Below, piece by piece: positions 3,101 through 47,721 of a DNA stretch of 64,000 nt. The DNA is taken from positions 22,297,168 to 22,361,167 of the forward strand of contig OZ316892.1 in NCBI GenBank assembly GCA_973895155.1. The letters run 5' to 3'. The notes under the pieces are model-generated. The model was not told where the DNA came from and ran no database searches. It saw only the letters and a list, made by a program, of their open reading frames with translations. The DNA comes from Marsupella aquatica (taxonomy: Eukaryota > Plantae > Marchantiophyta). A program made the position numbers and the translations under genes. Numbering within the stretch: the first letter of the stretch is position 1; each line of letters begins with the position of its first letter.

Positions 3101-3221
3101 ACGTACTGTGATGCCTAGACAGGAATCACTCGGCCGGTTAAGTGGGTAAAGCAGGAAGGCACCCTAGGAACACCTTAGTATAGTGACAAAACAAGGAAAA
3201 TATAAACAATTAGGGGCAACC

Positions 3222-6200
3222 ATGGAACCCGGGCAGAGGCCGGAGGTAAGGCTAAGGGTGAAAACCCGATTAGGGTTAGGGCGCGTTAAGCGTCGGCGGC
3301 TAGGAAGGATCAACGGGAAGAAGGACCGGCAGAGGAGAGGGGTAAGGAGCGCTTGCAGGAGATGGTGGCTCATTTGCGAGCACGAACTAGGCAGACGACT
3401 ACGGGAGGCCAACTACTGTCAGCTGCTTAGGCAAGCACTCGGGGAGAGAGTAGATACCGACGATCGACCTAAGGAGGGTATGAGCAACATCAATCAAGCG
3501 GCACATTTCTGGGGATGCCTGTTCGAACGGGCAACTGAGTACATCAAGACTTACGAGGACGAGGAGTCAGAAAGGGCAGCTCGAGAACGGCAGGAGCTCG
3601 CTCGATTGTGGGAGCTGCAGAAGACGACTTTCTTAGGAGGCGAACTCATCAAGGATGAGTTCCTGTGGACGCCTACTTCCAATCAACTCGACGATCTTCT
3701 GTTTTGCAAAGACAGCGTCGTCGGCATCCGAGAGGCCATCAAGAACTGCAACGACATACACTGGGAATTAAAGGGTAGCACGGAAAGGTGGACCCGGGCA
3801 ACGGTGCTAGGAGAAACCTCCACGGCAACAGAGATGAAGAGGAAGGGAGCCGTCAACGATGAAGCCACCCCGGCAAAAAGAACGAGGTCGGCGGCACCAA
3901 AGAAGCCAGCCGAGCAGCAGAGCAGGAGGCAGGGAGAAGCCGAAGAGGAGGAGGTCGATCCCATCAAGGCCATTCCAACCAGGGATGACACCTGGAAGGG
4001 CTGGGCGGCAACCCTACCGGTGGAGGTGCAACTACATTTTGCACGGGAGGAGGATGCATGCTTTACGGCCATGCAGACCAAGAAGTACCAAGGCTTCATG
4101 GCCGGATCCGGCTTGGAGGCCTTTGTAAGATTACCATGGCTGAAGCCGGAGGTACCGGAGTCAGACCTATTAGAATTCGTGGGGTCATGGGAACCCGAGA
4201 CCAATTGCACGAGGATATATGGGAAGGATTTCTATCTTACTCCCAAGGTAATTGCCGAAGTGTTTGGCTTGCCGATGGGCAATAAGACCAAAGTTGATAC
4301 CAGGAAGACCTTGCCTGACAAGGAGTTCCGGTCGTTCCCCGGGCCATCAACGAAGAATGGCTTCTTCCGGAACACCTGCACCAACCCGCACATAGGAGAG
4401 ATGATCGACTTCTTGCGGGTGACCATGCATTGTAACTTGCCGAGGGCAGAGATCGGCAAGGCACAGGTCTATCTGGCAGAAAGGCCAGACCCAAGCCGGG
4501 ACTACAACGGGTACCTCCTCAACCAATTGAAGAAGATCTTAAAGGAGGAGCAGCAGGTAATCAGCATGGGGAGCGTGTCGCGGCTTGGCTATCACATGCC
4601 GCTGTTGTGCCGGTATGCCAGAGGTCAGACTTTTGCCCCGGTACTTCCCCTGCAGGTAAGGGCACCCGAGGAAGCTCCAACACCGAGGCCGTTGGCTGAG
4701 AAGCCTCCACCACCTGTTAGTCCTACGATCGAGCAGGTGTTTAGGCCCAGGAAGGAAGACTTGCCGATGCAGCAACCAGGCATGCAGAGTCTGCTGAAAC
4801 TACTGGAGAAAGAAAAGAAATTGGCATCGGCAACAACAACGGCAACGGCAACAATGCAGGACACTACTACAGAGGTAGGCCTACACCGGCTCACAAGAGA
4901 AAACCCCTTTGTTGGAGACAAGGAGAGAATCAGGCCGGAATCCAAGCCAGGTGTTCGAATGTACGTGGGAACCTCAAGCTCCGAATCTGAGGCAGAATTG
5001 CCTGAAGCTCCTACCGACGAAGAGGAGAGGGAGAAGCCGGACGTCCAAGAAGTAGAGGAGGCAGTGGAGGACTGCAGCCATGATAATTCCGGCTATGGGT
5101 CGGACCATCACGTTCCAGGAGTAAGGACTTGTGGCCGGTTTGTCCCCACACTTCCAAGGGTAGTGCGAGGGGACCCCAACCAGCAGAGTAGCCCTGAGTC
5201 TCCCCCACCAGATGTTGCTCCCCCAAGCTTCGACGGCATAAAACAGACGGTGCAGGAATTTCAGGAGCGAATCAAGCAGGAGGAAGAGGCCGCCCTGGCT
5301 AAGGAAAAGGATTTACCAGGAGGAGATTGGCCGGAGGACATCAGGCGGCTAGCCGAAAAAGGAAGCAAACCTCTAGCCACGATTGAAGAGATCCGCAGGA
5401 CGGCTTGGGAGCAGAGGCCACGATGGGCGATGCCGATCACTTCTACTTACTCCACCTACGCTAAGAATAGAGCCATGGAGTATGGTGAGATGTGTGGGGA
5501 ACTTGCGCTCGGCATCTTTGGAGAGGAGTTGGAGATAGGACCCTTTTTCCATAGGGAGCAGTTGGAGAAGCACCAATTAGAAGAAGCGGTGGCTTTAGAG
5601 AGAAGCAAGAAGGACGAGGTCATTCGGCGGCTTAGGAGGATGGGAGCCGAGATTGAAGATCTAAGGGCGGCCAAGAAAGCCCAAGATGAACTGCGGATTA
5701 AACAACATGAGCTGAACATCATGCAGGGGCAGTTGGACGCCGCGCAGGCTGATAATCATAATATCAAGGATAAACTGACTCAGACGCAGGAAGAGTTGGC
5801 CGACACGATCAAAGAGAGGGAAAAGTGGAAGCAAGAGCTGAAGAATACAGAGGAGGCCCACATAACAGCCAACAGCCGGGCCATGGCGGAGACCCAAAGA
5901 AAGGAATGGGCGTTGAAAGGGGAGCTCGAGAAAATCCGCGGAGCCCTTGAGCAGAAGGAGGTCGAGTTAGGGAAATCCTATCAAGGGATTATGGCGCTGC
6001 AGCAGGAGCTTGCGTCCCTGACGGCCAGCTTCAAGGCCGACCTAAGGGAGAAGGACGAGATGGTCGAACAGACTTACGCCAAGATGAACCAGATGGAGTC
6101 TGTCATCATTGCAGAGCTCGACAAGGAGCTAAGAGCAACCCAGGAGGAGAGGGCTACCTTGAAGAAGGAATTGGAGGAAGCCCACAGGGAGCAGGAGGAG

Positions 6201-6821
6201 GCCAAAAACGAGCTGGAGGGGGCACGTAAGGACCTGGATGAAACCCAAGAGGAGTTGGAGGAAATCACGAGGAAGATGGAGAACCTACAGCGGCGGGCCG
6301 ACAACCAAACAGAGCGGCTGAAGAAACAAGCCGCAGTATTTAAATGCTTAGCTGCAGCAGGTCCATCTCCCGTTGGGACAAACCAGTTACCAGGGGTGGT
6401 AATTGCCGAAGGACAAGCCGCGTCAACTGCACCAGTGCCGGAAGTAAGTGGGAAGGGGAAGGGACCAGCTGCCGAGCCACCAACGAAGAAGAAGCGGAAA
6501 CCTCCAGGGTCAAGGAGTAATACGACTTCACAGGCCGTGGTGATCAAGGAGGTAGACCCAGCACCGACCCCAGACAGGGTCACGGCTAAGGATCCAACTA
6601 CCCTAGGGGAAGGGGAGGCCGAAGCCGAGGGAGTGGCTGAGGCCGAAGCCGTGGGTATTGCCGAGGCCGGTGTCGAGGCTGAAGCCGAAGGTGGACCCAG
6701 TCAGGCCGATGGAGAGTTGACTCGGTCAAGGGCAGGTAATCTGTCAGTAGGCGGGCCAACGGCAGTGGCTGAGGAGGAAGTGTTGGGGGCGTCCATTGAG
6801 GATCCACCACCGGTGTCGTGA
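3222..6821 (+). CDS. Retroelement accessory ('extra') ORF, ~1199 aa, with a plant-transposon-like domain and long coiled coil
   Basis: Uninterrupted ORF, first ATG at 3222. The segment GLEAFVRLPW..LLEFVGSW..RIYGKDFYLTPKVIAEVFGLP resembles Ty3/Gypsy (Athila/Tat-type) extra-ORF/PMD-like domains. An E/K/Q/L heptad-rich stretch spans ~5560-6340. Confidence 0.7.
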   Translation: MEPGQRPEVRLRVKTRLGLGRVKRRRLGRINGKKDRQRRGVRSACRRWWLICEHELGRRLREANYCQLLRQALGERVDTDDRPKEGMSNINQAAHFWGCLFERATEYIKTYEDEESERAARERQELARLWELQKTTFLGGELIKDEFLWTPTSNQLDDLLFCKDSVVGIREAIKNCNDIHWELKGSTERWTRATVLGETSTATEMKRKGAVNDEATPAKRTRSAAPKKPAEQQSRRQGEAEEEEVDPIKAIPTRDDTWKGWAATLPVEVQLHFAREEDACFTAMQTKKYQGFMAGSGLEAFVRLPWLKPEVPESDLLEFVGSWEPETNCTRIYGKDFYLTPKVIAEVFGLPMGNKTKVDTRKTLPDKEFRSFPGPSTKNGFFRNTCTNPHIGEMIDFLRVTMHCNLPRAEIGKAQVYLAERPDPSRDYNGYLLNQLKKILKEEQQVISMGSVSRLGYHMPLLCRYARGQTFAPVLPLQVRAPEEAPTPRPLAEKPPPPVSPTIEQVFRPRKEDLPMQQPGMQSLLKLLEKEKKLASATTTATATMQDTTTEVGLHRLTRENPFVGDKERIRPESKPGVRMYVGTSSSESEAELPEAPTDEEEREKPDVQEVEEAVEDCSHDNSGYGSDHHVPGVRTCGRFVPTLPRVVRGDPNQQSSPESPPPDVAPPSFDGIKQTVQEFQERIKQEEEAALAKEKDLPGGDWPEDIRRLAEKGSKPLATIEEIRRTAWEQRPRWAMPITSTYSTYAKNRAMEYGEMCGELALGIFGEELEIGPFFHREQLEKHQLEEAVALERSKKDEVIRRLRRMGAEIEDLRAAKKAQDELRIKQHELNIMQGQLDAAQADNHNIKDKLTQTQEELADTIKEREKWKQELKNTEEAHITANSRAMAETQRKEWALKGELEKIRGALEQKEVELGKSYQGIMALQQELASLTASFKADLREKDEMVEQTYAKMNQMESVIIAELDKELRATQEERATLKKELEEAHREQEEAKNELEGARKDLDETQEELEEITRKMENLQRRADNQTERLKKQAAVFKCLAAAGPSPVGTNQLPGVVIAEGQAASTAPVPEVSGKGKGPAAEPPTKKKRKPPGSRSNTTSQAVVIKEVDPAPTPDRVTAKDPTTLGEGEAEAEGVAEAEAVGIAEAGVEAEAEGGPSQADGELTRSRAGNLSVGGPTAVAEEEVLGASIEDPPPVS

Positions 6822-12160: not shown

Positions 12161-12223
12161 CTGTGACTCTGTTATCTGTGCATGAGTTATCAATCTGTCT
12201 TTTGAATAGTCCTAAGTTTATTA

Positions 12224-12661
12224 ATGTCCAATGTGGAGTCACAGTTGATAGGAGAGTTGCCAGAAGACTCACAATTGCCAGAAGACTCACAGTTGCCAGA
12301 AGACTCACAATTACTAGGAGACTCACAGTTGCCAGAAGACCTGATCGCTCCTTACACAACATCAGACATTGGAAATTTCATTTTAGAGAACATAGAAGCA
12401 ATAACCCCTCATTGTGTAAGAGACGTAGAGTTTTGTTGGGTGATTTGTCGTCAAGGTAACCATAAAATACTTGCTGGTCCATTTAGAATATTAAAACCCA
12501 CAGAAAAGACAGGGGAAGAGGAAACTGTTGTGGAATCAAAAGCCAAGGTTTTGTTCACTGTGAAAGCAGACGATATTTATCCTGTCATTTTGTTTGAGCT
12601 ACTTGATTGTATTTGTTCAACCTCTCGTGAGTTGTGTGCACATTTGACATGGCTTCTTTGA
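12224..12661 (+). CDS. Replitron upstream ORF, or frameshifted N-terminus, with 18-bp PEDSQL repeats
   Basis: 145-aa ORF overlapping the Rep ATG by 13 nt, with 4-5 copies of CCAGAAGACTCACA(G/A)TTG. Confidence 0.4.
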   Translation: MSNVESQLIGELPEDSQLPEDSQLPEDSQLLGDSQLPEDLIAPYTTSDIGNFILENIEAITPHCVRDVEFCWVICRQGNHKILAGPFRILKPTEKTGEEETVVESKAKVLFTVKADDIYPVILFELLDCICSTSRELCAHLTWLL

Positions 12662-13725
12662 AACGTAAAGCTTGTGCTATCATCCAAGAAGATGTTTCTT
12701 TAATGGACAGTGTCATGGAACTCAGTATTACAGTGGGATATCTTGGTGCAATTGTGCATACTGAAGAGTTGAGTTTGATGGACACACTAATCCGAGAGCA
12801 CTGTTTATCTGGTCTAGTAGCTCTAGAGAGAGGAGAGTTAGAGCGTCATTTGCACATGCAGATGGTTGTAAGAGCCAGAATCAAATCTGCCAGGTCGTTT
12901 GGTGTCCTTGTTAGGAAATACATGGGTTGGCAGGGTGTGAAGAATATGAATCCTGTAGGTAAAGTGATGTGCAAATCCTTGAGTAATAGACAATTGCATA
13001 CATTCAAAGGAATGATAGGTTATTGTTTGAAAGATATGGGTAAAACTCATTTCTTGCATGCAATGTATAACATTTCTGATGAAGATGTGATTGCAGGAAA
13101 CAGTTGCATTCTATTTATGGGCGAGCTGATCTAAAGTCCAGAGTGACTTTGACTAACAAAAATGTTGCAGAAAGAATGTATGTTTGGTATAAGTATAGGA
13201 CAGATAGACCTTTGTATGCCACATTTCTTTCTACACTAACTGAAATGGTGAAATCTGGGATTTTTATTCCTGCATCTAGTTGGATAATTCCACTAAATGG
13301 ACACGGCATGGAAAAATCCAGAATGACATGTCTTTGGAAATGTATAGTTGACCCATGCAATGTGACTAAGGTTGAAATTGAAGAAGTTTTTGTAAGAAAA
13401 CCTAGGACTGGCAGTTGGGGAAGATATCATACTGATTCTGAATGCAGATGATGAAGAAGCTTCACCAAGGAGTACAAAAACAGAGCTTTCACCCCAAAAG
13501 AGCTGTTTTAAGAGATTGAAGGTGAAAACAGAATCTAATAGAAAGTCTGTAGGCTTTGATGATCTATTTACAGAGTCTGTCATTCTTGGAAAGGGAATAA
13601 CATTTTGTGATCCCCTTGGTGAGTATGTACCTTTGAAAGATAGGCATAGGATTCCCAAGAATGATTATTTGGAGACAATTGACTTGTTGGAACAGCCTAT
13701 TGCAGGGGTGAGGAAAGGGAAATAG
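12649..13725 (+). pseudogene. Replitron HUH transposase, frameshifted near 13105 and 13445
   Basis: Shows LSITV (motif I-like), ALERGELERHLHMQ (HUH) and TFKGMIGYCLKD (catalytic Tyr). It continues in another frame as LHSIYGRADLKSRVTLTNKN...MVKSGIFIPASSWI...MTCLWK, matching the Replitron C-terminal domain pattern. Confidence 0.85.
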
Positions 13726-16141: not shown

Positions 16142-17404
16142 ATGGGGGAGGTGGGATTTCTGTCATTGGAGAAGCGGGGGCAATACCCGAGACTCAACTT
16201 TGTCAGCAGCTCCACGGCAGGTTTGGAGTTGTCCGAAGAGGAGAAGTGGAGTTTGGCGAAAGCTTTACAGGCCTTAGGGGTGGTAATACTCTATTTCATG
16301 TCCTGGTTTGCTCGGATCCTCTTGGTCTTTATACCCCAGGGAATTCCTTTGTATGGTCTGTCCAATGCTCTCGTTAGCTTCTCGTCCAACACCAGCGGTG
16401 GCCAGGACCAACATTTTAAGTCCAGTGAAAGGGAGCTAGATGAAGTGAATGTGCCCACCAGCGGAGGACCAATTGGGCGAGCACTTCTCCAGGTACTGTC
16501 TCTGGTGAATGATCTTCCCGCCTCTTCCGCAAAATACTCATTTGCGCGATCTCTGGCAGAGAAGATTGTCTTGGAGAACGCAACTCATGGGCATGGCTAT
16601 GAGTGTGTTAACCGTGCTGCCCTCTCAGCAGGCTTTGAAAGAACACTCGTTCTGATGAATCGATCTCTGGAAGGCATCCATCAGCAGAGGAGTACCTCGG
16701 GAGATTTATGGAGATTGCCAGGTAGGTTACTTCGGATGATTCCCGGCGGAGGGTTCAATCTTGTTCTCCCTCCCAGTCTGTCACTCGTAAGGACCCAGCT
16801 TGGCTACTTCATTCCACGGATCGCTAGTTCGACAACCATTTGTAGTAACTCGGGGGATACTTTCACAGGTTCGGCTCTCAGTGCATTTCCTGTCGGGAAC
16901 ATAGAGATGGCAGAAAAGCTAGCACAGGAATTGCTTTGGCTGGCGGAAAAGCTAGCTGAGATTTCGGCTTTGGACGAGGGCATTGCACAATGGAGTTCTT
17001 CCTCATCGCTGGCCTCTATATCTCTGAGGTCATCTCCTCATGTCCAACGAGCTCTTGTTCGGCTCTCTGCTCTCTTTGTGAAAGAGCTTGTTAAGAGAAA
17101 CTATGAGGTAGGTAAGGATGTCGAGTTCAAGTTGCTTTTGCGTTGGCTTCCCCTGTTCTGTGCAGCCACTCATGGTGGTGATGGTCCTATCTTCACCGTC
17201 TCTGAAAGGATGGATTTCGAATATAGTCTTGACAGAGTCGTGAAGGCTCTTCCTGATTCAGATCAAGAAGTAATCTTAGCAATCTGGCTTCAAGAGTTTG
17301 CGTTATCGTCATCTGATTGGCCGAATCTCCAGCCCTGCTACGATTATTGGTGCAACACCACCCGCAAGTTGAGACATTTTGGAAGAAGTCTTGAGACTCT
17401 TTGA
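16142..17404 (+). CDS. Conserved plant protein of unknown function (420 aa), At5g64230/At3g19920-like, C-terminus related to the At3g05675/At3g50780 BTB-associated helical domain
   Basis: Long clean ORF from ATG 16142. Motifs AEKLAQELLWLAEKL, LLRWLPLFC and LPDSDQEVILAIWLQEF...DWPNLQPCYDYWC are recalled from that plant family; family assignment is from memory. Confidence 0.75.
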   Translation: MGEVGFLSLEKRGQYPRLNFVSSSTAGLELSEEEKWSLAKALQALGVVILYFMSWFARILLVFIPQGIPLYGLSNALVSFSSNTSGGQDQHFKSSERELDEVNVPTSGGPIGRALLQVLSLVNDLPASSAKYSFARSLAEKIVLENATHGHGYECVNRAALSAGFERTLVLMNRSLEGIHQQRSTSGDLWRLPGRLLRMIPGGGFNLVLPPSLSLVRTQLGYFIPRIASSTTICSNSGDTFTGSALSAFPVGNIEMAEKLAQELLWLAEKLAEISALDEGIAQWSSSSSLASISLRSSPHVQRALVRLSALFVKELVKRNYEVGKDVEFKLLLRWLPLFCAATHGGDGPIFTVSERMDFEYSLDRVVKALPDSDQEVILAIWLQEFALSSSDWPNLQPCYDYWCNTTRKLRHFGRSLETL

Positions 17405-19739: not shown

Positions 19740-22340
19740 CTATCACGGAAAATGTTTCACTGTGTAATTATTCACGCGTAATCACGTACAGTGGTCTCAC
19801 CAAATGAGAAGCGAGCTCGGTTGGACTATTTGAAGGCTGGGCAGAGACTGTCTGAGATATCAGAAGCAATTCGCCTCGAAGCAATTAGATACATTGACTT
19901 CCGCGATACACATTTAATTTCTTTCTTTGAGTATCCTGTTAATTTGATAGTTGCATGGCTTACAACACCCATGAATGAAGCCTGTCCTGGGATGGACTAT
20001 TAATTTGAAACTTCGGAATTTGTCGACGTGCAATATATATGATTTCATTATATGGATACAAACAAATTCGAATCATTGATTCTTCCTGGCTACTGTCTGC
20101 TCATCAGAAAAATAAAAATTCAGCCTCATTAGGAATTGCCGAGTCTCCTCCAGTAACTATACTAACGTAGAAATCATCAGGAAACAGTAACTGGATAAAT
20201 TCGGATGTAAAAAGAATGCGCCTTTATAATAAATTTCTCAGTGAAAACATCTGAGAGAGAAGGCAGTAAACATCCATGATTGTTTTGAATTCAATAATAT
20301 GCCAAGTCTTTCAATTGTGGCCATCTGCAAGTCAGACCACGAGTCAACTCAAGGTCTAATTATATGGAAATGTGAAAGGTACTGTTATGGTCCATGGTGA
20401 AGTCCTTCAATGCGAAAGCCTAGACTCTAAGATCTTATCTGGCACTGAGCCTAGGACGTCCTAGTCGCGAAAGAATACTTTCATTTCTGGATGCATTGCG
20501 ATGTAATGCGTCCGGCAGTAACAGGCTGCAAGAAGTTGTGGAGAAGACGGCTTATAATATCTAGACTGGTGACTCTATTAAAAGCTAAAGCACCGTTCGA
20601 TAAGGTTTTGCTAAAAACAATAAATATCTGGAATGTTGTACGCTAATAGCTGCCCGATCGAGAGAGTAGAGCTTTGGGAAGTGTTCAGATCATAATTACC
20701 CGACATTACCTTCAGAAGCATGTACACGTTGATCCGATGTACATTACCACATTAATTCAGTTAATTTTGTGACAAGCCCTCTAGCTAATGCAATGACTGT
20801 CCTACCTTCAAGATTATATCAATGTATATCTCGCTGTCAATTAGGCCATTAATTTCATATTTGATACTTTTATCCGTCGGGCGTGGTTTTTCGAAGTCAT
20901 GAACCTCTAATTTATTCAAGTGGTCCCATTAAAAAATTTATTCAAGTGGTAGTTAAAGGCGAACTATGTTGGAGGTGAGCTGTGGTCCGTAGGTTTCAGT
21001 AAAAACAATATATGTGAACATGCATGTATCCGCTTGAATCGAAGAAACTCGATCACTTCAACTAATTGCCAGTACAATCGGGAGTAGAATTCGTAGAATC
21101 TAGGTTGGAGATGCGTACGTTTGAGACTTCTTAATTAGCTATGGAGTCAGGATTTCCGGGAATTCTCAGAAAATCACAAGCAAATACATCGGACTTCAAA
21201 CCTAAATATTCAAGGAATAAAGGCGACGTACATGAGGACAGAACAGTGTCAGGCAAGCAGAAATATGTCTGGAGGTCGGATGATGCGTACCTGGTACTAA
21301 CCTTCTGCAATGTGTTTTTTGGTAGCTGTCCAACTTCAAACTAATATGTACCACGTACTCTCAATTTAGAATTCAGTTTGATTAATTTACTCACTTTTCG
21401 AGCGCATTCCTCATTTTGCGATTGCAGTTCTCGCCAATGCTGAGAGGTAAGACTGTCCACTTGGCTTCCTTTAAAACCAGTGATAGACCGTGACACAAAG
21501 TCATTCCCAACTTAGAGTTCATGCTGTGAACTTGCATCCCTTGTATATCGTTCTACCGTGACTAGCCTCCCCCCTGAGAATTAAGAATATGTAAATCGTT
21601 CCAGTCAGTTCATTCAGGAGAACGAAGACCCAAACTTGACCATTTGTTTTTCGTGAGCTCTGCATAACCATCCCTACACCTTTGTCGTCGGCCTTGTCGA
21701 CGTAGCATGGGCTCTCAATTAGCTTCCTTCCTCTTGCTTTCCTCGTGTTCCTCTCCAGCAGTGAAATATTGATAGAGCGAGCAATAACTACCTCAACTGT
21801 ATCGCCAAATCACAGCGAAGTCCATTTTGTGGAGATAGGATTGAATGACGCGAGCTAATCGCCGCATGCCCTCCGATGAAATCCTGATCCAGAAAAGAAA
21901 CTGGAGAAGTCTGTGAATCATATGCAGCAGCTCGGGAAGTACATATTCAACCGGATCTCACCCTAGCTACCAGGCGGCGTCGACTTCCGTCTCTGGATCG
22001 AGGCAAAGAAGCCATCAGTCTCGTTTCTTCTTAAAATTTCCAAGTCCATGGCTGCGAGCGAAAGACGAATTTCCCAGTCTAAGGCTGCGAGCGCAAGATG
22101 AATTTCCCAGCCTATGGCTACGAGCGCAAGATGGACCTTGGCCTGGCCCAAACCGGCTGAATGGATGCTTTTTTCTGTAGCATCGCTGACTAACAGCCAA
22201 CCCGGACTGTGAACATAAAACTTTTCCAACCCTGTCGACGGACTGGAGGACAACACCAGTCAATCCTGGCTGATTGTCTCCCCGGGTCAAAAACGCTGAC
22301 CCCGGTTGCACGAACCTGGTTGCGCGGGTTCAGTCTGTTT
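19740..22340 (+). repeat. Partial copy (U0) of the peptide-cluster segmental unit with the peptide genes deleted
   Basis: 19760-20520 matches 36650-37830 and, in part, 53275-53600. 20566-21270 matches 40427-41280 and 55871-56730. 21590-22340 matches 42110-42900. Confidence 0.85.
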
Positions 22341-23925
22341 TCCTCATTTAAAAAAAATGACAACGTGGTTTAAATAATGTAGGAAGCTTCTCCTCTAGTT
22401 AAGTCTCCCCTTTTATAATGTAAGAATCTTCTCTTCTACAGTAGTAAGTTGTCCCCCCTTTTTTGTGTCTCTTGTCTTTTGATATCCTCTCCCAAATTTG
22501 CTTCTGATTTGACACTCTTTTTTATGGGCGCACAAAAGCTACAGGTTACCCTATATGGAGGATCCAAACTCACAATTTATTTATTTTGTTGGGTGGTTAA
22601 TGCAACAGAAATGTTACCATAATTTTGGTTGGTTATTTTTGTGTGAAAGTGATAGATGCTGTTGGGAATTGGGTTGGGAAGGGCCAGGGTGCGGTAGGGC
22701 ATGGCAAAGCATAAGACGGCCCATGGTGGCTGGGGGGATTGCACTGGCACACAGTGCTAGATACTTGAAGCAAGAACACCTTTCTTTTTCTTCCTCAATC
22801 TCCCTTGCCTTCCCTTCCTCCCTTGCTTTACTCCTGCTGCCCTCCCCGTGCACCTGCCCACTTCCCCCCCCCCACACACACACACACACCTTGGAAAAAC
22901 TTTTATTTGTAGAGTTTTGGGGTGACTGTGATCTATGGTTCAAATTGAGAAATCCCTTGAGATCTACAGATGGGTGTTCTCCAATATAGCAATGATTGAA
23001 AAATAATATTAGTTATATTCCTCTCCACTATATGCTACCTGCACTAGTTGTGCCTCCCCCAAATGTAATAGAGACCCTATATTCCTCACAATACTAATCA
23101 TGTGTGTCAAATAAGCCTCACCCAGATGATTACCTACACATCATGATGGTTTAACTATTGTGGGTTGTTCATCCTAAGCAAGTATAGCTTTTAGGTTATG
23201 TACTTAAAGTTGATCAATTTTGGGTGTACTTTTTAAGGTGCTTGGTTCCTGGAATTCCCCTAGCACCCCCTCTGAATTTACAACAGGCACCCCAAATAAG
23301 GTTTCTAGTTCACTCTTGCACCCTCACACTGAGTCATCCGTAATTATACCTTCTCAGATTTTCTATATAACCATGATGGCACCTTTTTCAGTGGGTCACT
23401 ATGTGTTATCCTCTACAGCTCTCTAGGTAATAAATATAATAAATTCAATCTAAATTACGGGTCTGTCATTGTGTTTTGTTTGCCATTTGCAAACATACAA
23501 TACTTACCGACAGTTAGCAACAGTATGTTTTTGCCCTGTTTCCCCCGGCCCTTTGTTGGGTCTTGTATCTTTTGTTTCCTGTGTCCCAGCTCTTCCCGTG
23601 TTTCCCTTCATTGTGGGGTCATATTTTTTACTCTTTGGTAGTACTATAATATATTTACTTACAACGAACCCACATAAAGACCAATTGAGGTCACCAGTAG
23701 ATTTCTTGCTTCATGTTTTTGTATTATGCCGGCATGCACTCGGCGGCGGCATTATCCTTCCTCTCTCGTTGCCACCACGACCGACCTTGTAACAGACTAC
23801 AGGGTCCACCACTCGGTTTGGCCCTCGATCTGTGGTCCGATTATACCTACGCTGGTCTTACGGATGCCGGTGACCAAGTTGCTGACCATGCCAGGGAGAG
23901 AGCAAGTTCTCACAGAATGATCGAG

Positions 23926-23933
23926 TATATAAA
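23926..23933 (+). promoter_or_regulatory. TATA box of type A array, U1
   Basis: TATATAAA followed ~25-30 nt later by a pyrimidine/CA-rich initiator-like tract; conserved at 46380. Confidence 0.65.
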
Positions 23934-24192
23934 GTACTCCGACCGTTCTCAATATTCAACAGCATTCTTCTACACATTCAGCTAGTCACTAAGTTAGTAA
24001 GTGAAGCTCGATCTCCGAAGGAAAAGCTCACAACATTCAGGATCTACTGTAGAAATTAAAGCAGGTGCTCCATCGCTTGGACCTAGCTGTCGATCAACAT
24101 CGAGTAGAGAATCTCTCTTTTCCTTGTTGTCGCATTCTTGGCACGGCTACCGGCGACGGTACACATTTGCTAGTCATACGTTTGTTGCCGAG

Positions 24193-24267
24193 ATGGATCC
24201 CAACGACATGTTTTATGGCGATGACGATCCAGCGTGGTTGAATGCCACCAACGATGACGACCAATGA
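24193..24267 (+). CDS. Acidic micropeptide A1 MDPNDMFYGDDDPAWLNATNDDDQ
   Basis: ATG in gagATGG context; member of the 14-copy family. Confidence 0.8.
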   Translation: MDPNDMFYGDDDPAWLNATNDDDQ

Positions 24268-24517
24268 ACGCGCAGCCTGCTCCAACTCGATCATTCTGCG
24301 GGGAGCTCAAATTTCATGCGTCGTTGGTACTTACTAGTATGCAACGTTAGCTCACTCATTTGGCTAGAGACAGATCCAGGATCATCCTGAAACAAGATAG
24401 ATTCTAGCTCAATTCCACATTTTTATCAGTTTATCAGTTATCTAGTATCAAAGTTTAGGCTTTGGAATTTTGGCCCGGATTTCGAAAGAAAAATTGGGTT
24501 GTGCCAGTGTGACTGAA

Positions 24518-24589
24518 ATGGATCCCAACGACATGTTCTATGGTGACGACGATCCAGCGTGGTTGAATGCCACCAACGATGACGACTAA
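24518..24589 (+). CDS. Acidic micropeptide A2 MDPNDMFYGDDDPAWLNATNDDD
   Basis: gaaATGG...TAA, with synonymous differences from A1 (TTT/TTC, GGC/GGT, GAT/GAC). Confidence 0.8.
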   Translation: MDPNDMFYGDDDPAWLNATNDDD

Positions 24590-24706
24590 TGAACGCGCAG
24601 CCTTTTCCAACTCGATCCTTCTGCGGGGAAATTGATGCATCCTTCGTACTTACTAGTATCCAACGTTAATTAGCGCAAAGCTAGGTGCTGCCGTAGTGTG
24701 ACTGAA

Positions 24707-24778
24707 ATGGATCCCAACGACATGTTCTATGGTGACGACGATCCAGCGTGGTTGAATGCCACTAACGATGACGACTAA
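24707..24778 (+). CDS. Acidic micropeptide A3 MDPNDMFYGDDDPAWLNATNDDD
   Basis: gaaATGG...TAA; synonymous ACC/ACT change relative to A2. Confidence 0.8.
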   Translation: MDPNDMFYGDDDPAWLNATNDDD

Positions 24779-24915
24779 TGAACGCGCAGCCTTTTCCAAC
24801 TCGATCATTCTGCGGGGAAATTGATGCATCCTTCGTACTTTATCCAACGTTAATTAGACACGTGTGTTAATTAGCGCAAAGCTGGGTGCTGCACTGCTGC
24901 CGTAGTGTCACTGAA

Positions 24916-24987
24916 ATGGATCCCAACTACATGTTCTATGGTGACGACGATCCAGCATGGTTGAATGCCACCAACGAGGACGACTAA
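24916..24987 (+). CDS. Acidic micropeptide A4 MDPNYMFYGDDDPAWLNATNEDD
   Basis: gaaATGG...TAA. Confidence 0.75.
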   Translation: MDPNYMFYGDDDPAWLNATNEDD

Positions 24988-25101
24988 TCAACGCGCAGCC
25001 TTCTTCAACTCGATCATTCCGCGGGGAGATCAATTTTCATGCATCTTGGGGCCAGTATGCAACGTTAGCTCAAAGCTGGGTGGTGCCATAGACTCACTCA
25101 A

Positions 25102-25173
25102 GTGGATCCCAACGATGTGTTTTACGGTGATTCTCCACCATGGTTGACTGCCTCCAATGGCAACGACAGCTGA
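25102..25173 (+). pseudogene. Disabled or near-cognate-start micropeptide copy (V)DPNDVFYGDSPPWLTASNGNDS
   Basis: ATG changed to GTG and one Asp codon lost; frame otherwise open to TGA. Confidence 0.7.
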
Positions 25174-25309
25174 AAATTTAGATGGCCTTCTGCATCGTTC
25201 CGAGTTGATACTTTAGAGCCTTACAAACTAAGGCAAGATCTGTCGGAATTTGAATGAACAGGTCCAGTCCAGTCGGCTCGATTTACTCAGGCTTAATTAG
25301 CTCGCAACA

Positions 25310-25441
25310 ATGTCATTCAATCGACCCAAAAGAATGACTTCAGCCTGCAGCTGCAGCGAGAACTATGGGAGATCTGAAACATTGGCTCAGCCTCAATTGC
25401 TGACGTCCAGGGTACAACACCGCTGGTACCATCGTAGATGA
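25310..25441 (+). CDS. Putative basic HRW sORF MSFNRPKRMTSACSCSENYGRSETLAQPQLLTSRVQHRWYHRR
   Basis: The ATG context GCTCGCAACAATG is homologous to 36124, 47557 and 52761; shares the C-terminal motif. Confidence 0.4.
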   Translation: MSFNRPKRMTSACSCSENYGRSETLAQPQLLTSRVQHRWYHRR

Positions 25442-26278
25442 AAACGCCATCTGACTCTTGTAAAATATGAAAAACGCCGTCATCTGGACTCTTGTAAAAT
25501 ATTAGATAAGTAGGATGTAGTAGTAGTAACGTTCTCATTATTATGAGCAACACTCAACTGTCTGCACATTTGCAGAAGATAGAAATTGACATCATTTTTT
25601 TATCCATTTGATTCAATGTATCAGAACTGCCCTATTCTTTACAAGTAAAATAAATAATTCTTTGTTCGAAGGACCTAATTTCGACCATTTCTACTACAAG
25701 TCGATCACCTAGCAAACTGCTTAAATAGATGAATTATGTGGCTCTATGTACGTGAGGCATGCTATCTGTTTCTTGTTCCTAGTAAGAGTGGAATTTTATC
25801 ACACTGTATGATCATTTCCATCACCTGCTGACCAATGAATCCTCTCAAACTAGGACGTTGCACTCACATTTCAACTGAAACAATTGTGGGATTTTCTCTG
25901 AATGGGATGCATTTTAGTGTTAACTTGATTCTCGCCATTATTTTTCTCAGTCTACTTTTCAGTAATTTAGGTCAGCAATACCTAGCAAAAAACTTGTATG
26001 CTACATATTGCAACAAATAACACTTCATTTGAGAGCATAAATTCAACTAGCATAAAGTTATTCAAGTTAGTCCAGTAAGTTAATTTTTTCCCCATCTCTC
26101 ACTGGAAAACCCACATACTTCTCCTCCTCAACTCACAGAAAACCGGGCAGAAAACCAACTGAACTTTTCTCACTGTTTAGTTACATGTAATTTTGAAGTT
26201 GCTATTTGCTATATGGGAAATGAAATTTTCAGAATTTGTCTTATTCATGATTTTTGTTTCATGTATTTATTTCAACAT

Positions 26279-26600
26279 CAAGGGGCATCCTTTGTATTAT
26301 AGAAATTTTAATTAATTTTTGAACGCCTTTAATTTTTGGTTCAAAAACTAATTCTGGCAGCCCTCTTAATTTTTAATCCCAATGACTTTAATTTCTATTA
26401 CTTTAACAAAGTTCTTAAGTTTTCTCATGAGAAAGAAAAATGATTCTAAATAAACTTGAACACGTGGTGTCTTACTTTCCACTCGTGACTTTCTTCCTAA
26501 GTTTATGGTTTATAAGTGCACACATCTTAGTGTCTTTGTGTCATAGCACCTGAGTGTATTTTTCATTGGTCACTATGTGCATTTATTTGCATGTACTATT
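26279..26600 (+). mobile_element. Left terminus of a DNA transposon of the same family as the element ending at 9365
   Basis: Reverse complement of ~9000-9365. Followed by AT-rich TE-like sequence with short tandem duplications (27620-27710, 27750-27848) and ATTAGTGTTA repeats (28460-28780). Right end not found. Confidence 0.65.
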
Positions 26601-35581: not shown

Positions 35582-35588
35582 TATAAAA
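35582..35588 (+). promoter_or_regulatory. TATA box of type B gene, U1
   Basis: TATAAAA ~225 nt upstream of the sORF; homologous TATAAAG at 51894. Confidence 0.6.
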
Positions 35589-35806
35589 GCATAGCCGCCG
35601 TTCTAATTGTTCATCAACAACTTCTTCTTGATTGAATACCAATTTGTCATCGTTCAACATCAACTTTTCTTTCGTTCGTACCTCACTCATTACGCTCGAT
35701 CGATCAGCTCTCAAAAACTTCCAGTCCTCAGCTTTGGATTTTCATTCGGCCTATCGTCACTCCATTCACAACCAGTTGCAGAGTTGTTTGATTTCTCGCT
35801 GCTCAA

Positions 35807-35878
35807 ATGGATCCCAACGATATGTTTTATGACGATGACGCTCCCGCGTGGTTGACAGCCTCCACCGATGACGACTGA
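35807..35878 (+). CDS. Acidic micropeptide B1 MDPNDMFYDDDAPAWLTASTDDD
   Basis: caaATGG...TGA; same length as type A although the flanks are unalignable. Confidence 0.8.
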   Translation: MDPNDMFYDDDAPAWLTASTDDD

Positions 35879-36123
35879 TGATGAACTTTGCCATCGGCAT
35901 TCCAGGATTAGGAAGATCGTGGACATCAAGGATTCAGCTCGAGTCCAGCTCCCGCTCCAGCATAGAGCTTTTGCTCAGTAGATTGATGAGAGATTGAGGA
36001 TTTGAAAAATACTCCAATGACTTCTGCTGAGAGGAAGTTTGGCTCAGTCTCCGCAGAACTTCAATGAACAACACAGGTAGACCTTGGGAGGGGGTCTAAT
36101 TTCCACCGGCTCAGCTCGCAACC

Positions 36124-36237
36124 ATGCCGTTCGAGGGACACAGAAATGACTCCAAATCACGAGGAGAGTTGGTGGACATGTCGAATCAACCTAAACAAAA
36201 GAGTTTCAGGGTGAAGCACCGTTGGATAAGGTCTTGA
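36124..36237 (+). CDS. Putative basic HRW sORF MPFEGHRNDSKSRGELVDMSNQPKQKSFRVKHRWIRS
   Basis: Homologous ATG. Two indels (-2, -7) relative to the 52761 copy restore the frame before the motif. Confidence 0.4.
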   Translation: MPFEGHRNDSKSRGELVDMSNQPKQKSFRVKHRWIRS

Positions 36238-36879
36238 GAGAGCGACGTGTCATTCGAATGATTCATAATAGGTAGTAGCTAAAGATCGATTCTTTGGGAC
36301 GTGCTCAATTTCAGCATCCCTTCATAGATACAGACAGTAGTAGTAGATCTCAGTGGACACAATACCTCGTAAACAGCGAGTTGCAGAAGACATGGATCAT
36401 TTTATCAAATCCTGACCTCCTTAACACACTTTTTCTGCAAATGAAAAGCACATTATTTGGGAGAAGACCCTAAGACGCTGAGGCTTCCACCCTCAGTTTC
36501 AACAATGATTAGAAACACCTGTAATTTCTGGGATGGTAATCGATCAGGCTTGCGTTCCATTCATCTTTCAGTGCCTCAGAGCTGCGGTGTATTTGAGTGT
36601 CCGTTACAAGAGATAAATTGTGCGTTATCTATTTTCACGAATCAATTGTGTAATTATTCACGCGTAATCACATCCAGTTGTGTCACCGAATGAGGAGCGA
36701 GCTAGGTTTGATTTTCTAACACTCGGGAGAGACTAATAGAGATATAGAGGCAATTAGAGACATGAACGTCCAGGATCCGCATTCAGTTAATTTGTCTGAG
36801 GATCCTGTTTGGCAGATTGACCGAGCATCCTCTTTCGTAGCTGCATTGCTTACAGAACTGGAACTTTGAACAGCATGGA

Positions 36880-39876: not shown

Positions 39877-39883
39877 TATAAAG
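39877..39883 (+). promoter_or_regulatory. TATA box of type C gene, U1
   Basis: TATAAAG; the homologous position in U2 (~55333) reads GATGAAG. Confidence 0.55.
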
Positions 39884-39932
39884 TCCTGTAGCCGATCTCA
39901 CATTCATCAAAACACGTAAGCTATTTCATTTG

Positions 39933-40023
39933 GTAAGCTTTCTCATTTCGTTGCTCAGCTTTCTCAAACAGCTGCTTCTTCTCTTCGACCCAGGAAGTTC
40001 CTTCATTCATAAATTATTTGCAG
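39933..40023 (+). other. Predicted 5'UTR intron of type C gene
   Basis: G|GTAAGC...TTATTTGCAG|G, 91 nt; both sites conserved at 55389-55475. Confidence 0.65.
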
Positions 40024-40157
40024 GTTTCGGACAATTTGCAAACCACGAGTCGAATTGAGATAGCAATTGAGCACTAACTTGTAAGGTCAGACTCGGGTGT
40101 ATTCTCCGAGTGATTGAGGTTCTCAATCGATTCAGATCAGCCCCTCTTGTGCATAGA

Positions 40158-40232
40158 ATGGATCCTAATGATATGTTCTACGGCGATGACGCCCCAGCCT
40201 GGTTAACGGCCTCCAACGGTGAGGACTGCTGA
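40158..40232 (+). CDS. Acidic micropeptide C1 MDPNDMFYGDDAPAWLTASNGEDC
   Basis: agaATGG...TGA, with many synonymous differences from types A/B (CCT, AAT, TTA, ACG). Confidence 0.8.
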   Translation: MDPNDMFYGDDAPAWLTASNGEDC

Positions 40233-40366
40233 AACTGGATGTGTCACGACCATCAATTTCTGGGGTCTGACCAGTTGTGATCGACGGTCAGGGGCCCTAA
40301 TGCGATTTTCCATCGTGATCAACGTATTCTACCGCTACATGGTCCAATATTGGGTTTTCTGATTCG

Positions 40367-40468
40367 ATGAGCTGGCTCGGAAGACTTCACGGCCGTCAAA
40401 GGCTGCACGTTATGGACACTAGTTACTTGGTGACTTACAAGCTAAAGCACCGTTGGATAAGGGCTTGA
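40367..40468 (+). CDS. Putative basic HRW sORF MSWLGRLHGRQRLHVMDTSYLVTYKLKHRWIRA
   Basis: Relative to the 55.8-kb copy: synonymous CTT/CTG, CGT/CGG, CAA/CAG, TTG/CTG, ACT/ACA and a 3-nt indel. Confidence 0.45.
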   Translation: MSWLGRLHGRQRLHVMDTSYLVTYKLKHRWIRA

Positions 40469-43400
40469 TGAAAACTCTCAATGCTTTGGAATCTTGTACG
40501 CTAGTACTTCGATAGAGAGAGCATACAGCTTTGGGAAGTGTTCAGCTCGAGCACCCTTCAGAAGCACACAGTAAACGTTTCGGCGGACACGATAGTTGTA
40601 GATGTTGAGAAGCCACTTTGGCCTATTGAAATTGATTTCCGGAGACATTGACCCGGGGTACATTACCCTATTAATTCAATTTATTTGTGACAGGCCCCTA
40701 ATGCATTGGCCCATCTTCAAGATTATATCAATGTGTATATATCCTGCTGTCGATTATGTAAAATATATATTTGATGAATCTATCTGTCTGAGCAGAATTG
40801 CACGTGGTTGGTCTATTCGAACCACATGAACTTTTGATTTATCCACGTGATCTCATAAATTGAAGGCGAACTATGTTGGAGGTCAGTTGTGTTAGATTAC
40901 AGTAAAATAATTTGTGAACATTGGCTTTTAGTAGAGGAAATCTCTAATCCCAGACTACTGGAGGTCAGTGTAGCTAGAGGCGTTCTTGTCGACCAATTCA
41001 GTACCTTGATCCATATATATTCTGTAGATTACTTGTGATGCCCCGGCCCGGCTCCCACTAATCAATCGAATGAAATCGGCCATCTGACTATCAAGTGTAT
41101 TTGGTGATGTATCCGCTTGAATGGAAGAAACTCACTACACCTACTTAGTTGAATCTACGTTGGACATGCGTACGTTTGTGACTTCTTATTTAGTTGGGGA
41201 GTCGAAATTTCTCAGGAATTCTCAGAAAACGGGCTCCGAGAATGACAGGCCGGATGGTGTCAGGCAAGGAGGAAAATACCTAGAATTTTGAAATCAGAAC
41301 CTGAATGGATCTTACAACCCATTTCGTGTTCTTTTTTGAATGATAGCCTCCAGACCAAAAGATCATTCAATTGACGTTTGGCATATGCTACTCCCTTCAA
41401 TTGATCGAATGAAGGAGCCACGAAGGAGCCAAGGTTAAGAAATGTAAGGAAGGAGCAAATATTTGTACTAGATCTTTGGTAGTTTTCTTCACTACTAGAC
41501 AAAATAAGGATCCACGTCAACACTTACTGGGCCCACGTACTGCTGGCAATGAAGTATCGTGTAGACACCAAATGTGAATACCCCACCAGTTCTTGGAGTT
41601 CTTGTGTAGCCGACTTTAGCTGTTTCTGCTCATTACGCTACCCAGATAAATTGATATATCGTTGAGTTAAATACAGACGACAGTAGATCCAAACTTCTTG
41701 TAAAGCCACCCTTCTATCCCAGACTCAGCAAGAAACTGTCCAAACTTAGATGAGTAGGGGGATTTTGTGCTCGGGAGGTCGGATGATGCGTGACTGCCAA
41801 TAACTTTTTGTAAATATTGTTTTTTTCTAGAGCTGCCCAATTTTCAAGCTTCCTTGTGTCCAATCTTAAGGTCCTCACTTATTCTTATGGGTAAATTAGC
41901 GAAAGACAGTACTCACTAGGATCTCCTGTCATTATTCATATTGCCTACTATGTATCACTCTCGTTTTAGATTTTAATTTGATTAGCCGGCGATTATACTG
42001 CTTTATTTCCTTTCGAAGGTGTTCTTTGTGTCCGATGGCAATTCTCGCCAATTCTGAGAAGTAAGGTTCCATTCCATGAACCAGAATTTGATGAACCAGA
42101 ATCAAGAATGTGTAAAACCATTTCAGTCAGTTCATTCAGGAGAACGAAGACCCAGATTGACCAATTTTTCTTTCATGAGCTCTGCATGTCGACCAACCCA
42201 AGTACCTTACCTGCCTCCGATACTCTTGGTTCAGCTCGTGGACAGCCTTGTCGAGGTAGCATGGGCTCTCAAGCTTCCTTGCTCTCGCTCGGACTCTCAT
42301 GGCAGGAGTATTGATCAAACGAGCGATAACTTTCTCAACTCTATCAGCCATCAACTCTAGCTTTACGCAAGGTGAGAACAAATCACAGCGAAGTCCAGTT
42401 TGTGGACCTGGGATAGAAGTACTTATTTATCGATGCATGCCCTTGGATGAAATACTGATCCGATAACGAAAAGTCTGTGAGTGTATCATTCTCAGCAGCT
42501 CGGGGAAGTACGTATTCAATCGGATCCCACCCTCGCGATCAGGCGGCCTCGACTTCCGGCTTTGGATCGAGGGGAAGAAGCCATCAGTCTCGTTTCTTCT
42601 ACTTAGAATTTCCAAGTCTCTGGATGGAGGCGAAGAACCGATCAGGCGAATTTCTTCTCCGAAGAATTTCTGAGTCTGGCTGCGAGCGCAACATGCTTCT
42701 TGCTTTCGGTCACGGGACCTTGGCCCAAATTGGCTGAATGGATCTTGCTTCTGTAGAGTCGCTGACTAACAGCCATCCCTGACTGAACAGACTTTTCCAA
42801 CCGTGTCGACGACTCGAGGTAAACAACAGTCAATCCTGGCTGAATGTTTTCTGAGTCCAAAAAGCTGACCCCTGACCCTGGTTGCGCGGGGTTTAGTCTG
42901 GTCTCCGTGTACCAAGTTAAATAATGTTGGAATTGTTTCCTTTTCAATTAAGCCTCCCCTTTATTGGGCCTCCTGACTTTTGGTAGCTTGTCTCCCAAAT
43001 GTGCAATTGTCTCTTGATCTCAACCATTTTCAATTAACTTTTGGGGACTTAAATTGTTGTTAGTGTTATATATATAACCCGAGCCCAATGCTAGTGAAGT
43101 GTGAAAATCAAGACAAGGGTGGCTTTCAAAGAAGGTATGGGCACGTATTTGTGAACTTTTCCCACCAAAGCTAACTGCAAGTCCACAAATTAGACATATG
43201 ATAGTGTACTACTGGTATTTTGGAATCAATTAATGGCAATATCTGAGAAAGTTATTTTCCATGACACTTCTGTAGTTATTTGGCTAGAGCCCTTCTTGCT
43301 CTAGCAAAAGAAGATCGGATGTAATGAAAGACATGTGAGTCCACTTTCACAGCAATTAAAAGACTCAAACTATGGATGGCCGGACCAAGCAGCCAAATTT

Positions 43401-46379: not shown

Positions 46380-46387
46380 TATATAAA
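46380..46387 (+). promoter_or_regulatory. TATA box of type A array, U2
   Basis: TATATAAA, homologous to 23926. Confidence 0.65.
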
Positions 46388-46648
46388 GAACTCCGGCCAT
46401 TCTCATTATTCAGCATCATTCTTCTACACATTCATTCAGCCAGACAGTAAGTTACTAACGGAGGCTCGATCCCCAAGGAAAATCTTGTATCATTCTGCTT
46501 CTACTGTAGGAATTATAGCAGCTCCGCAATAGCTTGAGCTAGCCGTCTATCCAGATCCAGCCGAAAATTTGTCACTTGCTTGCTGTCTCATTGTTGGCAA
46601 GGTAGTGACAGGGCGACGATCGAGATTGCAATTACGTTTGTTGCTGAA

Positions 46649-46720
46649 ATGGATCCCAACGACATGTTCTACGGTGACGACGATCCAGCGTGGTTGAATG
46701 CCACCAACGATGACGACTAA
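46649..46720 (+). CDS. Acidic micropeptide A5 MDPNDMFYGDDDPAWLNATNDDD
   Basis: gaaATGG...TAA. Confidence 0.8.
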   Translation: MDPNDMFYGDDDPAWLNATNDDD

Positions 46721-46908
46721 TGAACGCGTAGCCTTCCCCAATTCGATCATTCTGGGGTTATCAATTTCATTCATCCTGCGTACTTACTAGTGTGGAACGT
46801 CAGCTCACTCATTTGGCTAGAACAGATCCAGGATCGTCCTGAAACAAGATTTGGAATGTTGGCCCAAAATTCGAAGGCAAAGCTGGGTGGTACTATAGTG
46901 TGAGTCAA

Positions 46909-46980
46909 ATGGATCCCAACGACATGTTCTATGGTGACGACGATCCAGCGTGGTTGAATGCCACTAACGGTGACGACTAG
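46909..46980 (+). CDS. Acidic micropeptide A6 MDPNDMFYGDDDPAWLNATNGDD
   Basis: caaATGG...TAG (stop codon swap). Confidence 0.8.
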   Translation: MDPNDMFYGDDDPAWLNATNGDD

Positions 46981-47096
46981 TGAACGCGCAGCCTTTTCCA
47001 ACTCGATCCTTCTGCGGGGAAATTGATGCACCTTCGTGCTTACTAGTATCCAACGTTAATTAGCGCAAAGCTGGGTGCTGCCTTAGTGTCACTGAA

Positions 47097-47168
47097 ATGG
47101 ATCCCAACGACTTGTTCTATGGTGACGACGATCCAGCATGGTTGAATGCCACCAACGATCGAGACTAA
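47097..47168 (+). CDS. Acidic micropeptide A7 MDPNDLFYGDDDPAWLNATNDRD
   Basis: gaaATGG...TAA. Confidence 0.75.
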   Translation: MDPNDLFYGDDDPAWLNATNDRD

Positions 47169-47386
47169 TGAACGCGCAGCCTTCTTCAACTCGATCATTC
47201 TGCGGGGAGATCAATTTCCATGCAACCTTGGTACTTACTAGTGTGGAACGTCAGCTCACTCATTTCATTAGACACGATTCCAGGATCATCCTGGAAACAT
47301 ATCGATTCCAGCTAATTTCGGCATCTTCATCGGTCGAATTTGGGCCGGATTTCATTTTAGCCGGGTAATGCCATAGTCTCGCTGAG

Positions 47387-47460
47387 ATGGATCCCAACAA
47401 TGTGTTCTACGGTGATGATTCTCACCATGGTTGACTGCCTCCAATGGCGACGACAGCTGA
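47387..47460 (+). pseudogene. Frameshifted micropeptide copy (MDPNNVFYGDDS//PWLTASNGDDS)
   Basis: A 1-nt deletion (TCTCACCATGG vs TCTCCACCATGG at ~25131) gives a stop at 47432-47434. Confidence 0.75.
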
Positions 47461-47556
47461 ACATTCAGATGGCCTTCTGCATGGCAACATCTGGCGGAAC
47501 TTGAATGAGGAGGTGCATTCTAGTCGGCTCGATTTACTTCGGCTTAGCTGACAGCA

Positions 47557-47721
47557 ATGTCATTGAGTGGACCCAGAAGAATGACTTCAGCCTGTAGCTG
47601 CAGCGAGAACTATGGGAGATGTCAAACATTGGCTCAGCCTCAACCGCTCACGTCCAGGGTAAGGCACCGTTGGTATCCAGTGTATATGAAAAACCCCGTG
47701 ATCTTGACTTTTCTAAACTAA
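47557..47721 (+). CDS. Putative basic HRW sORF MSLSGPRRMTSACSCSENYGRCQTLAQPQPLTSRVRHRWYPVYMKNPVILTFLN
   Basis: Frame shared with 25310 through HRWY; synonymous TGC/TGT, CTG/CTC, CGC/CGT, TAC/TAT. Confidence 0.4.
   Translation: MSLSGPRRMTSACSCSENYGRCQTLAQPQPLTSRVRHRWYPVYMKNPVILTFLN

Follow-up and report, generated by a model that had tools for sequence, protein, structure and literature searches.

Locus A lies in a 64-kb stretch of DNA from the liverwort Marsupella aquatica, the whole of which was analyzed here and is called the window. It raises the question of whether a plant gene can carry several near-identical, stop-separated peptide ORFs behind one promoter and translate more than the first of them. 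The first-pass annotation of this DNA had described five such ORFs behind a single TATA box and proposed that they are read from one mRNA. The parts of locus A, its paralogues B to F and the gene remnant G, described below, are on the forward strand.

Layout of the repeat array and its gene unit

The TATA box (TATATAAA, 23926..23933) is, as had been claimed, the sole TATA-like site in 23900-25450. With a start site predicted about 30 nt downstream of it, the putative 5' leader (23956..24192) contains no ATG, compared with 3.7 expected. The repeats start at 24193, 24518, 24707, 24916 and 25102, giving the spacing of 325, 189, 209 and 186 nt reported earlier, and the spacers between successive ORFs measure 250, 117, 137 and 114 nt. 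Four of the units are ORFs with an ATG and a stop, namely A1 (24193..24267, 24 aa) and the intact A2 (24518..24589), A3 (24707..24778) and A4 (24916..24987), each of 23 aa. Together these ORFs (24, 23, 23 and 23 codons) encode MDPN(D/Y)MFYGDDDPAWLNATN(D/E)DD; the A3 peptide is identical to that of A2, and A4 has D5Y and D21E. The fifth unit, A5 (25102..25173), had also been credited with a start and stop of its own, but it is broken, with GTG for ATG and one codon missing. The spacers differ by indels and ORFs 1-4 have none, again as first described. Start-to-start distances modulo 3 are 1, 0, 2 and 0, so that the frame shifts between units, and tandem stops end most peptide copies; the frame shifts and stops rule out a polyprotein, which the first-pass annotation had likewise dismissed.

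The array is not an assembly artefact, because exact-match contigs from sequencing run X1 cover most of the region (22500-24252, 24232-24535, 24811-24961 and 24948-26384), with no listed piece covering the entire array. The four sequencing runs gave even coverage of the flanks and behave as DNA. Over 23953-24349, runs X2 and X4 contain a second haplotype or paralogue that is ~8% diverged from locus A, has Cys in place of Gly9 in ORF1 and differs at the spacer joints; the layout of the array appears to vary.

The promoters of the six loci described below (A to F) align with one another, with the TATA position shared by five (A to E; it is mutated at F) and an initiator-like TTC(T/A)CA stretch behind it. 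The leaders of A to E lack any ATG (1.7-4.0 expected in each), and that of F has four. Downstream of the last unit, the 3' regions show homology in each of the 15 locus pairs (z of 3.0 or more). No second TATA or AATAAA was found in the locus A spacers (114-250 nt); the missing TATA, which had been pointed out before, is weak evidence on its own, with 0.8 expected per 1250 nt. The spacers resemble leaders or 3' regions weakly. Because each locus shares a homologous promoter and a homologous 3' region, sequence comparison describes locus A as one gene unit, a single-gene chassis like that of the single-ORF loci C and F, inside which the ORF has been multiplied. The proposal of a single transcription unit is thus borne out at the level of homology to the single-ORF paralogues and of spacers free of TATA and AATAAA. 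The first AATAAA after the TATA box (25649..25654) is homologous to that at 48105 in locus D, and an mRNA of ~1.7 kb ending near 25649 is predicted.

Among the 3' elements, the one best conserved across the loci, AAGCACCGTTGGATAAGG-like, was found at 25415-25426, 36214, 40445, 47662, 52864, 55889 and ~20590. At five of the six loci it reads (K/Q/R)HRW within a basic ORF that opens with ATG and encodes 33-54 aa; at locus A the motif is CAACACCGCTGG, reads QHRW and lies in a 43-codon ORF (25310..25441) of doubtful coding status. This basic ORF probably reflects a nucleotide motif rather than coding, since pN/pS is about 0.5 in two pairs, the frame is shifted in E and third positions are not more variable. 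Between the element and the 3' end of the peptide ORF there is partial complementarity, perfect over 10 nt in C, and the element may serve as a regulatory site in the RNA or encode a second peptide. A hairpin-like segment (GGGA.GUG..loop..CAC.CCUUC) occurs in the 3' region of B (~36295-36322), C (40531-40557), D (47743-47769) and E (52943-52968) with some compensatory-looking changes; it is deleted in A, and its folding z-scores were not significant. At the other end of the genes, GGTCCAC is present in three of six promoters (A, C and D; e.g. at ~23804) with four occurrences in the whole window, and is a possible shared cis-element. GTAC/CATGC enrichment in the promoters gave nothing clear. 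An intron-like GTAAGC...TTGCAG segment is conserved in the leaders of C (~39933-40023) and F (~55389-55476).

The peptide family and its paralogues

A BLAST search of the 64-kb window with one ORF revealed 13 recognisable copies of MDPNDMFYGDDxPAWL at six loci, five of them at A, four at D (46649-47387) and one each at B (35807), C (40158), E (52077) and F (55615); the five loci besides A had escaped the first-pass annotation. Similarity between distant paralogues is essentially limited to the ORF. Paralogue D (46380..47721) is the sister array, with a TATA at 46380, intact ORFs at 46649, 46909 and 47097 and a frameshifted terminal copy at 47387. Its second copy, D2, is distinguished by G21, and its third, D3, by L6 and R22. 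In paralogue B (35582..36237; TATA 35582, 3' motif 36214) the ORF at 35807-35878 is followed by a heavily decayed second unit near 35990-36030, and in paralogue E (51894..52880; TATA 51894) the ORF at 52077-52148 is followed by a decayed second copy at 52590-52637 (MHRNDFFNFGDDAPW). Single ORFs are present in paralogue C (39877..40468; TATA 39877, ORF 40158-40232), which has the intron-like segment in its leader, and in paralogue F (55330..55915; ORF 55615-55689), which has upstream ATGs. The six loci belong to a block of B-, C- and A-type genes that has undergone segmental duplication, and a C-type remnant near 20.6 kb (G, 20561..21274) consists of the 3' portion of such a gene without a peptide ORF. 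The X2 and X4 contigs include copies that match solely over the ORF and then run into sequence absent from the window, and four of five flank motifs of these extra copies have no window match within 2 mismatches, indicating that further family members exist elsewhere.

Across the 11 intact window copies, a minimum-change count gave 19 synonymous changes in 11.4 sites and 16 replacement changes in 51.6 sites (p=1.6e-6), and variable codon positions comprised 16/22 third positions, 5 first and 6 second. The same pattern was missing from the other five frames of these 11 copies, or the frame has stops. The family codes for protein and has been subject to purifying selection, and the peptide pattern is more than chance because this selection acts at the codon level over all 11 intact copies. 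The peptides are 23-24 aa long (GRAVY -0.6 to -1.4) with a core of F..DD.PAWL, in which F7, D11, P13, W15 and L16 are invariant. The A copies have 7-8 acidic residues, zero basic residues and no hydrophobic signal stretch. We found neither an N-terminal signal peptide, as in the secreted plant hormones PSY, CEP and CLE, nor a conserved in-frame upstream extension. It is about an even bet that the peptide is an intracellular short linear motif that binds a protein partner and that selection acts on its dose; metal binding would be an alternative function. A 64-codon open frame upstream of A1 was rejected as a candidate, as it is not conserved in D, and so was an ORF behind each peptide entered through a stop-start overlap (UAAUG/AUGA), which is absent in A4 and D2 and has 3 codons in D1.

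The IRON MAN/FEP peptides are small, intracellular, Asp-rich and encoded in gene clusters, and the IMA motif closes the peptide with APAA. The GDD.PA of the liverwort peptide bears a surface resemblance to that motif, but PAW is internal in all liverwort copies and is followed by 8-9 residues. Membership in this family was rejected on the position of the C-terminal motif and the lack of a Pfam match.

A profile search of 1.84 billion representative proteins returned two matches. P0087, encoded on a 1269-nt Logan contig (E 1.5e-7), is a true homologue that retains MDPNDMFYGDDxPAWLTA, and is the sole one among these representatives; P0088, a Chloroflexus repeat protein, was rejected as low-complexity. 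No polyprotein form of the peptide was seen in the same search. P0087 has a partial repeat, VDPNFMF, in frame 13 codons upstream, which suggests an independent local duplication of the ORF start. A word-indexed protein search with A1 and 16 upstream codons gave no match, although it also missed P0087, which is present in that collection. None of nine sequences was present in an exact look-up, none of eight peptides matched Pfam, and the ESM Atlas held no usable match for A1. Pattern searches of JGI metagenomes gave 0 matches in one case and, in another, a lone match at a contig end, followed by an early stop and rejected as chance; a PDB match at E=1 was also rejected. Rfam had nothing near the loci, its two weak matches (E 0.8-0.94) both lying away from the ORFs.

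The locus A peptide is therefore a conserved 23-residue acidic peptide, previously unnamed, that belongs to a real micropeptide family, and this family stands regardless of the polycistron claim. It is conserved yet falls below normal annotation limits, and is without a Pfam or PDB match. A literature search over paper listings and the openings of abstracts, mostly outside the subscription journals, turned up neither a plant mRNA with repeated near-identical peptide ORFs nor an earlier account of the peptide, which may have been described in a liverwort sORF catalogue. We regard the micropeptide family as new and its gene architecture as resembling that of tal.

History of the array and translation of the downstream ORFs

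A tree of the ORFs separates type I (A1-A4, D1-D3, B and E) from type II (A5, D4, C and F) with a support of 0.84. In B and E, decayed type II copies lie at a homologous place ahead of the shared 3' region; because of these copies and the split in the tree, the two-ORF layout likely predates the separation of A/D from B/E. The tree describes an ORF that duplicated within the gene to give types I and II, followed by further amplification of type I in A and D. Units A2, A3 and D2 are just 2-4% diverged, spacers included (3.7% over the entire unit for A2 and D2), compared with ~22% in the leaders, and the two arrays look homogenised. A1 and D1 differ by 4 synonymous and 0 replacement changes in codons 2-22.

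Our preferred reading, with a probability of roughly 0.5, is that locus A gives one ~1.7-kb mRNA in which ORF1 would supply most of the peptide and ORFs 2-4 would add lower amounts via post-termination re-initiation; polycistronic translation itself carries about the same odds. A scanning ribosome would enter the AUG-free leader and translate ORF1, and some 40S subunits would resume scanning once the short ORF ends, bypass the AUGs 46-72 nt past the stop, most of them weak, and begin again at the following strong AUG, 114-250 nt downstream. Peptide yield would drop with each step, leaving ORF1 dominant. Because of this proposed stepwise drop, the last copy would lose constraint and decay once extra copies upstream had pushed it far downstream. 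The first-pass annotation had left the choice between re-initiation and leaky scanning. Re-initiation fits the geometry, and leaky scanning is unlikely because ORF1 has a strong context (-3G/+4G) and eight AUGs lie between its start and ORF2. The limits for re-initiation quoted for tal are an ORF of <35 aa and a spacing of 40-200 nt (PMC1852585); locus A has ORFs of 23-24 aa and three of its four spacers (114-137 nt) in range, with that of 250 nt outside. The -3G/+4G context is shared by all of A1-A4 and by 1/26 other ATGs in the array, although the four contexts are copies of one another and the +4G is forced by Asp2. The spacer AUGs 46-72 nt past the stops of locus A mostly have a pyrimidine at -3, and ahead of every following ORF there are 4-8 AUGs. 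In locus D, decoy AUGs lie 53 nt before D2 and 19 nt before D4, each with a purine at -3.

The same mRNA might be usefully translated from ORF1 alone, the other copies being by-products of unequal crossing-over that sit in the 3' UTR and stay intact through youth and gene conversion from the selected first ORFs. We consider this doubtful but a serious competitor. The low divergence of A2, A3 and D2 means that youth or gene conversion can explain intact frames without selection, and selection was not detected in the internal intact copies (A2-A4, D2 and D3; n=5), which have 2.5 synonymous and 6.5 replacement changes (ω~0.56, indistinguishable from neutrality, p=0.49), with D5Y and M6L falling at positions invariant in first ORFs. 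The first or sole ORFs (n=6) have 16.5 synonymous and 10.5 replacement changes (ω~0.14), but the contrast between the two groups is not significant (p=0.12-0.15). The strong ORF1 context, the many AUGs in between, the homogenisation of A and D and the existence of the single-ORF paralogues C and F also favor translation of ORF1 alone, as does the fate of the terminal ORF, which different lesions have broken in A and D and which has decayed in B and E, so that it is lost or decayed at four of four multi-unit loci. The same terminal ORF, however, supplies the evidence against it. Between A and D it differs at 4/71 sites, compared with 129/690 in the pooled segments outside the ORFs (Fisher p=0.005) and p=0.06 against the 3' flank alone; the flanks are 14-22% diverged, and 7 positions differ within the 27 nt immediately upstream. 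Against C and F its pN is 0.08-0.11 and its pS 0.49-0.82. The heavy decay of the same copy in B and E shows what neutrality looks like; thus the low divergence and low pN imply that the terminal ORF was long constrained while downstream. Recent conversion from first ORFs fails to account for this, since the terminal ORF has residues of its own (V6, S12 and P14). In the X2 and X4 contigs, which come from runs of one study, the terminal copy is full-length and in frame, with 2 synonymous and 2 replacement changes listed and the start codon not among the listed positions. Indel rows over the array are 12/12 in spacers, 3 nt long or mutually compensating, in contigs that include locus D and first-position copies. 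For four indels, the probability that all fall in spacers is 0.15; eight would give 0.02.

Two further explanations have less in their favor. Each ORF could be the first in its own mRNA, via alternative splicing of the leader or TATA-less internal starts, in which case the locus would be multi-copy and not polycistronic. GTAAGT donor-like sites occur in both array leaders (23998 and 46447), a YAG lies 10-12 nt ahead of each downstream start codon in 7/7 spacers, and C and F have the intron-like leader segment. The two GTAAGT sites, however, are at non-homologous positions, the YAG lacks a pyrimidine tract and 8/21 of the last spacer columns are invariant anyway, and the spacers hold no clear promoter remains, so that we consider this arrangement improbable. 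Still less probable is that the repeats are a non-coding RNA element (a miRNA precursor cluster or structured RNA) or encode a polyprotein through readthrough or splicing. The 3' region has a conserved AAGCACCGTTGG-like nucleotide motif and the conserved small hairpin-like segment, and the homologue P0087 has its partial N-terminal repeat fused in frame. Nevertheless, third codon positions take most of the changes, spacer folding is no better than that of shuffled sequences (z +0.5 to +1.2), Rfam has no match near the loci, and frames shift from unit to unit, with tandem stops in most copies.

Similar gene systems and other features of the window

The arthropod gene tarsal-less (tal; polished rice, mille-pattes), known from insects, has similar short, stop-separated ORFs in a ~1.5-kb unit, strong 5' start contexts, a non-conserved trailing ORF and variable copy number (PMC1852585). 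In its genomic anatomy locus A is alike: its gene unit has several similar short, stop-separated ORFs, the 5' start contexts are strong, the spacing would permit re-initiation, copy number varies between loci and the trailing ORF is not conserved. The liverwort peptide lacks LDPTGxY, the core of the tal type-A ORFs (PMC1852585), and at 23-24 aa it is acidic and longer than the 11-aa tal peptide. Single-ORF paralogues accompany the liverwort array, and downstream translation is proven in tal and a prediction in locus A. By analogy locus A likely works like tarsal-less, but it is not a member of that family. That a land plant independently evolved a tarsal-less-type gene, with every intact copy translated by serial re-initiation to raise dose, is a tentative proposal that falls somewhat short of even odds. 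If the downstream ORFs are translated, locus A would be a plant counterpart of tarsal-less, and the one-ORF, decayed two-ORF and four-ORF paralogues side by side would record the birth and trimming of a eukaryotic polycistron. With single- and multi-ORF paralogues in one cluster, nature offers a series on which serial re-initiation in plants could be tested and from which the design of polycistronic plant transgenes could profit.

Within plants, the ENOD40 transcript of legumes contains more than one small ORF and its peptides are not secreted (PMC12744755, PMC10638237), as is predicted for locus A; the two ENOD40 peptides differ in role and the RNA structure matters. The locus A ORFs, in contrast, are near-identical repeats with unstructured spacers, and no match to the ENOD40 RNA family was found in Rfam. 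Nuclear mRNAs with more than one translated ORF are also found elsewhere in the green lineage, in green-algal bicistronic loci, where leaky scanning accompanies a weak start context at ORF1 and a small number of upstream AUGs (PMC11892635), and in the plant CDC26-TTM3 bicistron (PMC12744755). Locus A differs from the algal loci in its strong ORF1 and the 4-8 AUGs before each next ORF, and from both in repeating one peptide rather than joining unrelated proteins.

Several other features were seen in the window. An intronless At3g05675-like BTB/POZ-ankyrin gene lies at 16142-17404; its product shares 83% identity with a Calypogeia fissa protein and 50-55% with Marchantia and Riccia proteins, one Marchantia homologue being named MpLDPS2 by its source. 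At 12206-13451 a Replitron HUH endonuclease and its C-terminal domains are in two separate frames (HUH remnant 12631-13451), and this transposon is probably broken. A 1217-codon ORF at 3168-6821, with a coiled-coil region and no confident Pfam match, is flanked by GC-rich 189-nt tandem repeats (2002-2661) and is probably an accessory ORF of a mobile element. Finally, a MITE- or foldback-like 319-nt inverted repeat, 91% complementary and with arms 546 nt apart, was found at 57844-59027.
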